Shown: positions 1,082 to 6,906 of the stretch, piece by piece
Position numbering within the stretch: position 1 is the stretch's first letter
Layout of the letters: every line of letters starts with the position of its first letter
DNA from: a candidate division WOR-3 bacterium
GTDB lineage: Bacteria > Hydrothermota > Tepidihabitantia > Tepidihabitantales > Tepidihabitantaceae
NCBI GenBank assembly: GCA_039801225.1
Contig: JBDRUH010000036.1
Location: 1-15,488 of the forward strand
Length of the DNA: 15,488 nt
Direction of reading: 5' to 3'
Translations under genes and position numbers: made by a program
Notes under the pieces: generated by a model
Seen by the model: the letters and a program-made list of their open reading frames with translations, nothing else
The model's database searches: none
Told to the model about the DNA's origin: nothing

Positions 1082-2134
1082 TTAGAATCGCAGAAGAACC
1101 CCGCCCCAGGTGAGTCCGGCGCCAAAGGCGACCATTATTACCCGGTCGTTGGGCTGAATTCTTCCTTCCCGTCGGGCTTCATCCAGAGCGATGATGGTTG
1201 AGGCAGAGGAGGTATTGGCGTATTTCTGGATATTGACATAGACCCGGTCCATCGGGAATTTCAAAAGTTTCGCCATCGCCTCAATAATTCTTAGATTCGC
1301 TTGATGGGGAATGACAAGTTTAATGTCCTCTGCTCTTAGTCGGGCGTGCTCAATCAGCCTCTTGACCACATCCGCCATTGAACGCACCGCCACTTTGAAT
1401 ATGGCATGGCCGTTCATCTTCAGGTAGTGCAGGCGCTGTTGCACCGATTCTATTGAAGCGGGAATGCGTGAACCGCCTGCCGGCATATACAAATCTGAAC
1501 CGTGGCTTCCATCAGCGGCAAGGTAAGTGGCGATGATTCCCTGACCGCGATTAACCGTTGCCTTGAGCACGGCGGCACCAGCGCCATCAGCAAGAAGTAC
1601 CGCGGTGCTGCGGTCGGTCCAGTCGGTTATTTTGGAAAGGACCTCAACGCCAACAACTAAAACAGTTTTATAGGTGCCGGTGGCGATGAACTGGCGGGCG
1701 GTAGCCAGGGCATAGATAAAGCCGGAACAGCCGGCACTTAAATCCATTGCCGCGGCATTGCGGGCACCCAATTTATCTTGCAGGATACAGGCGGTTGATG
1801 GAAAGGGCATATCACCGGTAACGGTGGCAACAATAATCAGGTCAATCTCTTCCGGTTTGACACCGGCATCAATCAGCGCCCGGCGCGAGGCACGCAGGGC
1901 AAAATCGGATGCGGCTTCATCTGGCGAGGCGATGCGGCGTTCTTTCATACCGGTGCGTTCGGTAATCCATTCATCAGAGGTGTCAAGGATTTTCTCCAGA
2001 TCATCGTTGGTAACTACTCTTTCCGGCACAGCAAAACCGGTGCCGGCGATGACCGCACTATATGAAACCTTTGGTGATGCGGCATCATTCTTTAACTCCA
2101 CCTCAGGCTGGGAAACAGAACTAAAATAATTCAC
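1082..2134 (-). CDS. fabH: 3-oxoacyl-ACP synthase III (FabH); start uncertain (GTG 2134 or GTG 2101)
   Basis: Motifs DTSDEWITERTG, AGCSGF (catalytic Cys), IPHQAN (His), ANTSSAS (Asn) and the C-terminal FGAGLTWG. Confidence 0.95.
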   Translation of the reverse strand: MNYFSSVSQPEVELKNDAASPKVSYSAVIAGTGFAVPERVVTNDDLEKILDTSDEWITERTGMKERRIASPDEAASDFALRASRRALIDAGVKPEEIDLIIVATVTGDMPFPSTACILQDKLGARNAAAMDLSAGCSGFIYALATARQFIATGTYKTVLVVGVEVLSKITDWTDRSTAVLLADGAGAAVLKATVNRGQGIIATYLAADGSHGSDLYMPAGGSRIPASIESVQQRLHYLKMNGHAIFKVAVRSMADVVKRLIEHARLRAEDIKLVIPHQANLRIIEAMAKLLKFPMDRVYVNIQKYANTSSASTIIALDEARREGRIQPNDRVIMVAFGAGLTWGGVLLRF

Positions 2135-2326: not shown

Positions 2327-2344
2327 TTCTACCTATAGGTAGAA
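2327..2344. repeat. Perfect 18-bp palindrome TTCTACCTATAGGTAGAA
   Basis: Reads identically on both strands, with no loop. Confidence 0.9.
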
Positions 2345-2381
2345 AAATTTTAGGGTAATTTTAAAGGGTTATTTCCTTAAT

Positions 2382-2394
2382 TTTCAAATGGTTA
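2382..2394 (+). promoter_or_regulatory. IHF-like binding site in an AT-rich segment
   Basis: TTTCAAATGGTTA matches the E. coli IHF consensus WATCAANNNNTTR with one mismatch and has an A/T-rich stretch upstream. Confidence 0.35.
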
Positions 2395-2428
2395 GCAATA
2401 AATTATAAAATTTTAGACCCCAGCCCCT

Positions 2429-2620
2429 ATACTGCTCCCTTAATTATTTTTCATATTGCCTTTCAAGTTACAGGAAAGATACCTTTAAAGGGTGCATAAA
2501 AGGTTATGACGATGAGAGTTTTTCAGGTCACTTTTTGTGTTGCAACAGAGGTCGCATTGCAGGTTGAATAAGGGCTCAGATAAAAGGTCATTTTAAAGTT
2601 TGCCAAGAATGTTATCTTTC
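2429..2620. repeat. Degenerate non-coding tandem array of ~16 x 12-bp units, consensus AGRTYRYNTNNN
   Basis: AGGTY occurs at 2501, 2525, 2549, 2561 and 2585, all in one 12-bp register. Column counts over 16 units: pos1 A 12, pos2 G 10, pos3 R 14, pos4 T 13, pos5 Y 14, pos6 R 15, pos7 Y 14, pos9 T 11. Confidence 0.75.
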
Positions 2621-2706
2621 AATTGGGGGTTAAGAGGAACACAGTTGAAGTTGGGGTTTGGATTGAAGGGTAAAGCCGGCAAGGGTTTTGGTTTCGGGTT
2701 GAGTAA

Positions 2707-3810
<1,104 letters not shown>

Positions 3811-6558: not shown

Positions 6559-6906
6559 ATGAAAGAGATAAAACCAAAGGAAAAAACTCCAGGATTGACT
6601 GCCCTACAGAGAATAGAGAAACTTGGCAAAGCGGTAGCCAATATGACCCAGGCAGAATTGGCCCGGGCGGTAGGGGTCTCGCGGGAACGAATTCGTCAAC
6701 TTGTGCCCCGATTGAAAATTAAACCCGGAAGGCGGATAATCGCTTGGCACCGAACCCTATCCAACTCCCAACTTGAGGCGATTGCGAAAATGTATGAGGA
6801 GGGAACTCCGTTACCCGCCATTGCGAAAAAATACAAAGTGAGCGAGTATCATGTCCGTGAAGCGCTCAAGTTGGTGAGAAGGAAAAAGCGAGCGCAAAGA
6901 AAATAG
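6559..6906 (+). CDS. Small basic protein with two helix-turn-helix motifs
   Basis: GAGGAG RBS. HTH1 TQAELARAVGVSRERIRQL (sigma region 4.2-like). HTH2 LEAIAKMYEEGTPLPAIAKKYKVSEYHVREAL. Confidence 0.8.
   Translation: MKEIKPKEKTPGLTALQRIEKLGKAVANMTQAELARAVGVSRERIRQLVPRLKIKPGRRIIAWHRTLSNSQLEAIAKMYEEGTPLPAIAKKYKVSEYHVREALKLVRRKKRAQRK

Follow-up and report, generated by a model that had tools for sequence, protein, structure and literature searches.

The closest described counterparts of the locus analyzed here are the capsid proteins of the Adnaviria, including those of SIRV2 (3j9x), SSRV1 (6wq0), AFV1 (3fbz, 3fbl, and 5w7g), SFV1 (6d5f), and PFV2 (6v7b). According to the structural reports, these proteins cover 12 bp per dimer in SIRV2, AFV1, SFV1, and PFV2, hold the covered DNA in A-form, and build filaments with 9.3-17.1 units per turn (PMC5517147, PMC6105669, PMC7189273); AFV1 is described as having 12 bp per repeat, as in SIRV (PMC5517147), and SFV1 as having 12 bp per asymmetric unit (PMC6105669). 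Here we show that a 15,488-nucleotide contig of a candidate division WOR-3 bacterium (JBDRUH010000036.1, hereafter the window) carries a real, non-coding array of degenerate 12-bp units. It forms the final part of a cassette that recurs around the genome and that, at another site, is linked to a gene encoding an XRE-HTH protein. The copy in the window has no such gene, and none of this was recognized in the sequence-only reading that first described the array.

The cassette and its protein resemble Adnaviria capsids in (i) a predicted helical arm and four-helix bundle, (ii) two paralogous fused domains reminiscent of the viral heterodimer, (iii) an array period equal to the viral step, and (iv) an indirect, profile-level link through free-standing WOR-3 copies. 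They differ in being located on a bacterial chromosome, with a fusion to an XRE-HTH domain, a short phased track accompanied by an operator, and no viral genes nearby, whereas viral coats cover a whole genome and the five viral contigs checked here have no such track. XRE controllers and repressors (C.AhdI, C.BclI, ClgR, and the N-domain of CapH) match the N-terminal domain with Z up to 11.2 and likewise have a palindrome at the gene start; here, however, the protein has a predicted capsid-fold tail, and its operator recurs with an array at many sites that have no gene. In plasmid centromere and adaptor pairs such as TubR-tubC, an autoregulatory DNA-binding protein also lines up on repeats next to the gene that encodes it, whereas the present system has no motor NTPase gene, uses another fold, is dispersed in many copies, and leaves the unit sequence nearly free. 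REP/BIME, ERIC, and BOX elements and minisatellite-bearing MITEs are likewise scattered between genes, with some copies descending from versions that carried a gene, but here no terminal repeats or target duplications were detected, the head geometry is fixed, and the cognate protein is non-enzymatic.

The sixteen 12-bp units that had been placed at 2429-2620 were reproduced exactly. Mean column identity at period 12 was 0.408, compared to 0.269 in dinucleotide shuffles (z 12.45; reached by 0 of 1000 shuffles), no signal was found at periods 10, 11, and 13 over the same segment, and a 192-bp segment on the array ranked first at period 12 among 62,159 such segments of the genome. The check originally suggested, over the whole spacer (2135-2796), gave no signal by the column-identity measure (z 0.9). 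Stops are present in all six frames as claimed (5, 1, 3, 7, 3, and 3). A constraint of the first seven positions to AGRTYRY had also been proposed; each unit agrees at 4-7 of these positions, but the motif is complete in just 4 of the 16 units, and position 9 is constrained too, with T in 11 of 16. By its leave-one-out score of -4.6, the unit at 2429-2440, which opens the series, groups with the anchor and not with the array. Consistent with the earlier judgement that this is not a CRISPR array, it has no constant repeat and no polarity, and an Rfam scan returned no match to a known RNA family.

The public runs listed as containing window DNA are hot-spring metagenomes, with no RNA run among those listed. 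A contig from one public run, possibly the source sample, covers 2432-2864 with 3 differences. The register is broken by two 4-bp insertions, one in the copy on contig C1 (by eye) and one in a contig of run X3, behind 2603. In run X5, a contig of a 97%-identical relative departs from the window at 2176, just past the fabH promoter region, which perhaps marks a cassette boundary or another insertion.

Coordinates of the cassette and its flanks are summarized in Table 1. The palindrome-to-anchor span measures 93 bp throughout, save for one of the 14 copies, which has 92 bp, and the TTA of the IHF-like motif is invariant in all 24 cassette heads. The latter motif resembles the IHF consensus; this genome has one HU/IHF-family gene. 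The palindrome arms vary by genome yet remain palindromic. The flanking genes are presumably fabH-like (a name taken from the sequence-only reading) and gap, and a candidate sigma-70-like pair was noted by eye at 2737-2764, 5' of gap. Elsewhere in the window, an ORF at 6559-6906, downstream of an rplU-like gene, encodes 115 aa and includes two HTH motifs (Sigma70_r4, E 4.8e-10).

Table 1. Features of the fabH-gap spacer and its flanks (window coordinates)
Feature	Position	Strand	Observation
fabH-like gene, flank outside cassette	1082..2134	-	Reads away from cassette head
Perfect 18-bp palindrome, arms around 6-bp centre; putative operator of the XRE-HTH domain	2327..2344	.	99.6% consensus identity, 13 copies
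IHF-like motif, about two inverted half-sites	2369..2395	.	Invariant TTA, fixed distance from palindrome
C-tract anchor with first, anchor-like unit; sets array start	2411..2440	+	96% consensus identity
15 degenerate 12-bp units, purine/pyrimidine core RYnRY; putative lattice for capsid-fold dimers	2441..2620	+	z 12.45
Weak array continuation with 3-base shift (uncertain)	2636..2731	+	Best phase +3: -1.6 bits vs -3.5 to -8.2 in other phases
gap, flank	2797..3810	+	Reads away from array end

Other identities considered for the cassette head were set aside. A sigma-54 promoter with an IHF site was rejected given that no conserved GG-N10-GC was seen by eye in 24 heads, although sigma-54 and three activators exist. 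Two large TPR-rich sigma-54 activators (domains by eye) are encoded at C2:49851-52610 (919 aa), directly after a copy of the window's cassette family, and at C4:47991-53249 (1752 aa), the latter with a kinase-like N-terminus (by eye). CRP/FNR was dismissed as a palindrome binder in that matches to Crp-type HTH domains do not track the cassette, and Rex in that it was not found in this genome.

The flanking anchor, the palindrome, and further arrays, which the sequence-only reading had proposed to seek, were all found in this genome. The window's family (family A) has 14 copies, and a second, parallel family of approximately 26 copies by pattern match is laid out in the same way around a different palindrome. 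One more, diverged member of this second family, at C6:15130-15450 (z 6.3), lies outside the pattern, and a strong further 12-bp array with different units (z 11.9), reading towards lower coordinates at C55:7330-7640, possibly represents a third cassette family. Copies occupy unrelated loci, and the window array keeps its phase with the other 13 at an identity of just 29-43%. Of the scorable family-A copies, 6 of 11 lie in divergent spacers, and in the second family 3 of 15 do so; among cassette-free spacers, 33 of 186 are divergent. Counting the reference, 15 of 26 second-family tails are free of indels; of the 28 indels observed, 7 have a length of 12 or 24 bp, and most of the others are in four worn copies. 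A cassette occupies the same fabH-gap site in another genus (G001), while the corresponding 150-bp spacer of G002 is cassette-free. We count as signs of selection this shared site, the 12- and 24-bp indels, and the consensus identity over 13 copies, which is 99.6% for the palindrome but 68-70% for the spacers, the anchor having 96%. A 12-bp array also lies between fabH and a gyrB-like gene in G022 (L017:2900-3300), where no XRE gene was seen in the locus; it is probably a gene-less cassette in another genus. No tRNA integration site was found in 50 loci.

On contig C45, a 370-aa protein is encoded divergently, with its start codon 8 bp past the end of the palindrome; a 59%-identical relative of this protein is named as candidate division WOR-3. 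The N-terminal domain is an HTH of XRE type (HTH_31 at E 6e-6, with 26.9 bits where the cut-off is 27; 2ofy and 2b5a matched at Z 11.2). Contig C37 contains an internally deleted copy of the gene-bearing cassette. The two distant fused paralogs in this genome, on C42 and C28, both have a palindrome, that of C42 being nearly identical to the palindrome of the second family, and neither has an array, which counts against our model. The C-terminal module was found in 38 of 43 other family genomes, in up to at least 9 copies; of 228 genomes from outside this family, 1 has it.

Homolog loci were sampled as the best locus of each of 30 genomes, drawn from 260 matches, of which two were too short and 28 scorable. 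Period 12 reached z>=3 in a fixed upstream window at 25 of these 28 loci (base-permutation null), and the top period was 12 or 6 at all 28. Further loci from three genomes gave z>=5.8 at period 12 in 16 of 16 cases (from 18 loci, one without a match and one too short). Palindrome and unit sequences are locus-specific across the WOR-3 family. Intact arrays in relatives often have 20-27 units by a rough segment score, and young arrays consist of near-identical units with 24-bp higher-order repeats. After removal of 8 near-orthologous arrays, the remaining 35 gene-linked arrays share a purine/pyrimidine template with core RYnRY, whose coherence was reached by 0 of 150 column-permuted nulls and whose symmetry by 4 of 150. 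The window array fits this template (r 0.81, p 0.0085); two-fold symmetry of single arrays was not significant (p 0.29 for the window array). Module and cassette head were compared in genus g12, where three module-bearing genomes have at least 22-25 head matches, a figure inflated by reverse matches on the palindrome, and two 96%-complete module-free genomes have 1 and 0, these being related genomes and not independent observations. G044, G048, and G050 (75-90% complete) have 2-4 head matches though the module was not found in them, which counts against such a link.

The C-terminal domains of the XRE-HTH protein are predicted to have the SIRV2 capsid fold. The full-length model (pLDDT 91) matches XRE domains, and both of its C-terminal domains match capsid proteins of archaeal filamentous viruses. 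When the C-terminal module was folded alone (pLDDT 92, pTM 0.81), the top five of 48,161 chains were Adnaviria capsid proteins: 6wq0 (Z 10.4, rmsd 2.3, 85 aligned), 3fbz (Z 9.7, rmsd 3.4, 103 aligned), 3f2e (Z 8.7, rmsd 2.0, 76 aligned), 3fbl (Z 8.4, rmsd 1.9, 78 aligned), and 6d5f (Z 8.3, rmsd 2.9, 88 aligned). Such capsids account for 6 of 7 chains at Z>=8, both C-terminal domains being matched, and 5w7g_B aligns over 115 of 126 residues (rmsd 3.2, Z 8.0). The predicted model has the four-helix bundle with an N-terminal helical arm that defines the SIRV2-fold family, at moderate Z; it is important to note that, by the guide for comparing helical bundles, Z below approximately 13 may reflect a common arrangement, and values here are 8.0-10.4. 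Foldseek returned nothing at E<=0.001, the ESM Atlas gave no usable match, and direct searches of Pfam, PHROGs, and PDB sequences with the fused module gave no match to a coat family. Short homologs of the fused protein are predicted to have one capsid-fold domain and the fused chain two.

Sequence profiles identify free-standing WOR-3 genes as SIRV2-type coat homologs. At E<=0.1, PF12193 (SIRV coat) has matches in 62 of the 272 phylum genomes, among them 41 of the 43 in the family, and in none of 14 controls; 24 of the 272 exceed its curated cut-off. Most matches are to free-standing genes of approximately 122 aa, with up to 14 per genome. This genome has two such homologs, at C35:12294-12659(-) and C6:39641-40003(-), located among host-like ORFs (by eye); a free-standing copy scores 23.5 bits, just below the PF12193 cut-off of 25.2. 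A profile of 12 free-standing proteins finds the SIRV2 coat 3j9x (E 3.6e-7) and 6wq0 (E 5.3e-7) as well as fused domain 1 (probability 84%, E 7.9e-6, 74 columns); fused domain 2 matches this profile weakly (14%, E 0.002), as do the two fused domains each other (12%, E 0.0024). A 12-bp array with a similar anchor lies upstream of 4 of 11 free-standing genes, all in one genus and hence not independent, and 7 of 11, including that on C35, have no upstream array. The C6 gene has no clear array, despite an upstream IHF-like motif, palindrome, and G/C anchor. As for a viral setting, an Adnaviria provirus would place the coat gene in a viral block with genes for replication, egress, and glycosyltransferase, whereas the 116 ORFs within approximately 1.5 kb of fused genes, mostly housekeeping or without family, include a single Y1 transposase but neither an integrase nor any viral gene. 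Viral contigs had no match to two single fused proteins, phage records gave one match (E 0.4), and the five viral contigs matched by the free-standing profile, at 26-28% identity, have neither cassette head nor array.

Because viral coats of this fold cover 12 bases per pair, the array is likely a track for SIRV2-fold domains, with one dimer-equivalent per 12 bp, wrapping a short stretch of chromosome. The agreement of footprint and period is an independent check, since the fold came to light only after the period had been determined, though it concerns a single number. The suggestion in the sequence-only reading of a phased polymeric protein-binding scaffold has gained indirect support, in the form of a candidate protein whose relatives have a 12-bp footprint. 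An XRE dimer would bind the palindrome, resulting in autorepression at the gene and docking at gene-less copies; a bend introduced by HU/IHF would carry the tethered capsid-fold domains to the C-tract anchor, where they would nucleate a filament extending some 15-25 steps along the track, possibly with the help of free-standing subunits. The two fused domains of each chain would act as a single-chain pseudo-heterodimer, and the filament would hold approximately 200-290 bp as an A-form solenoid. C/G runs favour A-form. With 9.3-17.1 units per turn in viral filaments, the 15-25 units of an array would therefore make about one to two turns. What such an element does at present is the weakest step of the proposal: we tentatively suggest, at somewhat less than an even chance, that it is a local DNA-wrapping element retained by the host between promoters for insulation or regulation.

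Several other explanations account for part of these observations. It is unlikely, though worth weighing, that the cassette is a selfish non-autonomous repeat (MITE- or REP-like) that is copied passively, with the array as a decayed minisatellite and an ordinary XRE repressor binding the palindrome only. Copies at unrelated loci, the internally deleted gene-bearing cassette on C37, and the young arrays of relatives with their near-identical units and 24-bp higher-order repeats are as such an element would predict; it gives no reason, however, for the dominance of period 12 or, as a harmonic, 6 at 28 of 28 loci despite differing units, or for the shared purine/pyrimidine template of the arrays. 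A rough test on 14 copies, whose ends are undefined, found no excess of flanking repeats (7.5 vs 8.2 bases), the flanking ORFs have a single Y1 transposase and no integrase, and no conserved catalytic residues were seen in the protein alignment. We regard as rather improbable a packaging or transfer signal, by which the cassette would initiate the assembly of filamentous particles; these would shield or transport chromosomal DNA, and the free-standing subunits would make up most of their coat. The abundance of free-standing coat homologs in the family, approximately 40 cassettes in the genome as possible start sites, and a gene found at many loci without an adjoining recombinase favour it, but no other virion, egress, or replication genes adjoin the cassettes, no joints were found among contigs of 4 of the 7 public runs listed, and the arrays are short. 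More doubtful is an antiviral decoy or guard, in which domesticated coat domains and their tracks would tie up or poison the coat protein of a hypothetical filamentous virus of these bacteria. Genomes have numerous diverged paralogs that differ in operator and units, as an arms race might produce, and one gene-bearing cassette lies directly before a DNA methyltransferase-like ORF (L042:3777-4049; named from a motif); against this, no such virus was found, the five matched viral contigs being distant, and neighbouring genes are mostly housekeeping.

The remaining alternatives concern the array itself. Its growth by addition of units at a CRISPR-like leader, which the sequence-only reading had put forward, is very improbable, although an IHF-like site approximately 20 bp before the anchor resembles type I leaders. 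The copies compared were 7 and 6 of the 14 in family A and 19 of the 26 in the second family, the others being omitted for indels or low identity. Homologous copies, 7 from one subfamily and 19 from the second family, correspond one unit to one unit and show no polar gain, which argues against polar addition; divergence is lowest near the anchor, and no integrase is linked. The same reading had offered a decayed tetrapeptide-repeat gene, in keeping with V/I at every fourth codon in one frame and with a stop-poor frame in one subfamily (4 in 525 codons). We consider this exceedingly improbable, because pN/pS was 0.73-1.01 in 18 of 18 frame tests with a flat mod-3 profile and no third-position excess; relatives' arrays encode no common peptide (by eye), and the orthologous site in G001 holds the same kind of cassette. 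A replication origin with non-classical DnaA boxes is hardly credible: an AT-rich stretch adjoins the phased array, and near 2.5 kb there is an increase in raw GC skew, but 14 copies exist, the window contig has no TT[AT]TNCACA box whereas a pair lies beside dnaA on C15, and third-position skew indicates one replichore on both sides.

Taken further, the wrapping-track explanation leads to a proposal that we consider evenly balanced: a bacterial lineage may have taken over the coat of an archaeal filamentous virus as a programmable chromatin or particle system, in which XRE-fused nucleators would read genome-specific operators and 12-bp tracks would seed A-form filaments at dozens of sites, possibly packaged and spread. 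We found no account of bacterial SIRV2-fold proteins or of the cassette in the openly licensed literature; subscription papers or preprint supplements may hold one. One recent preprint treats the SIRV2 fold in archaeal viruses only (bioRxiv 10.1101/2025.08.23.671958), another source uses it as the hallmark of a virus realm (PMC9925010), and in a third we found nothing relevant to bacterial SIRV2-fold proteins or the cassette (PMC12487901). Given that the system is small (one gene and approximately 300 bp), in vitro rebuilding is possible, and the arrays, as naturally occurring substrates selected for their sequence, would help to address what kinds of DNA are prone to A-form wrapping. Chromosomal bacterial homologs with a DNA lattice of their own would give the SIRV2 fold a cellular role, and would bear on the origin of the virus realm that is defined by this fold.
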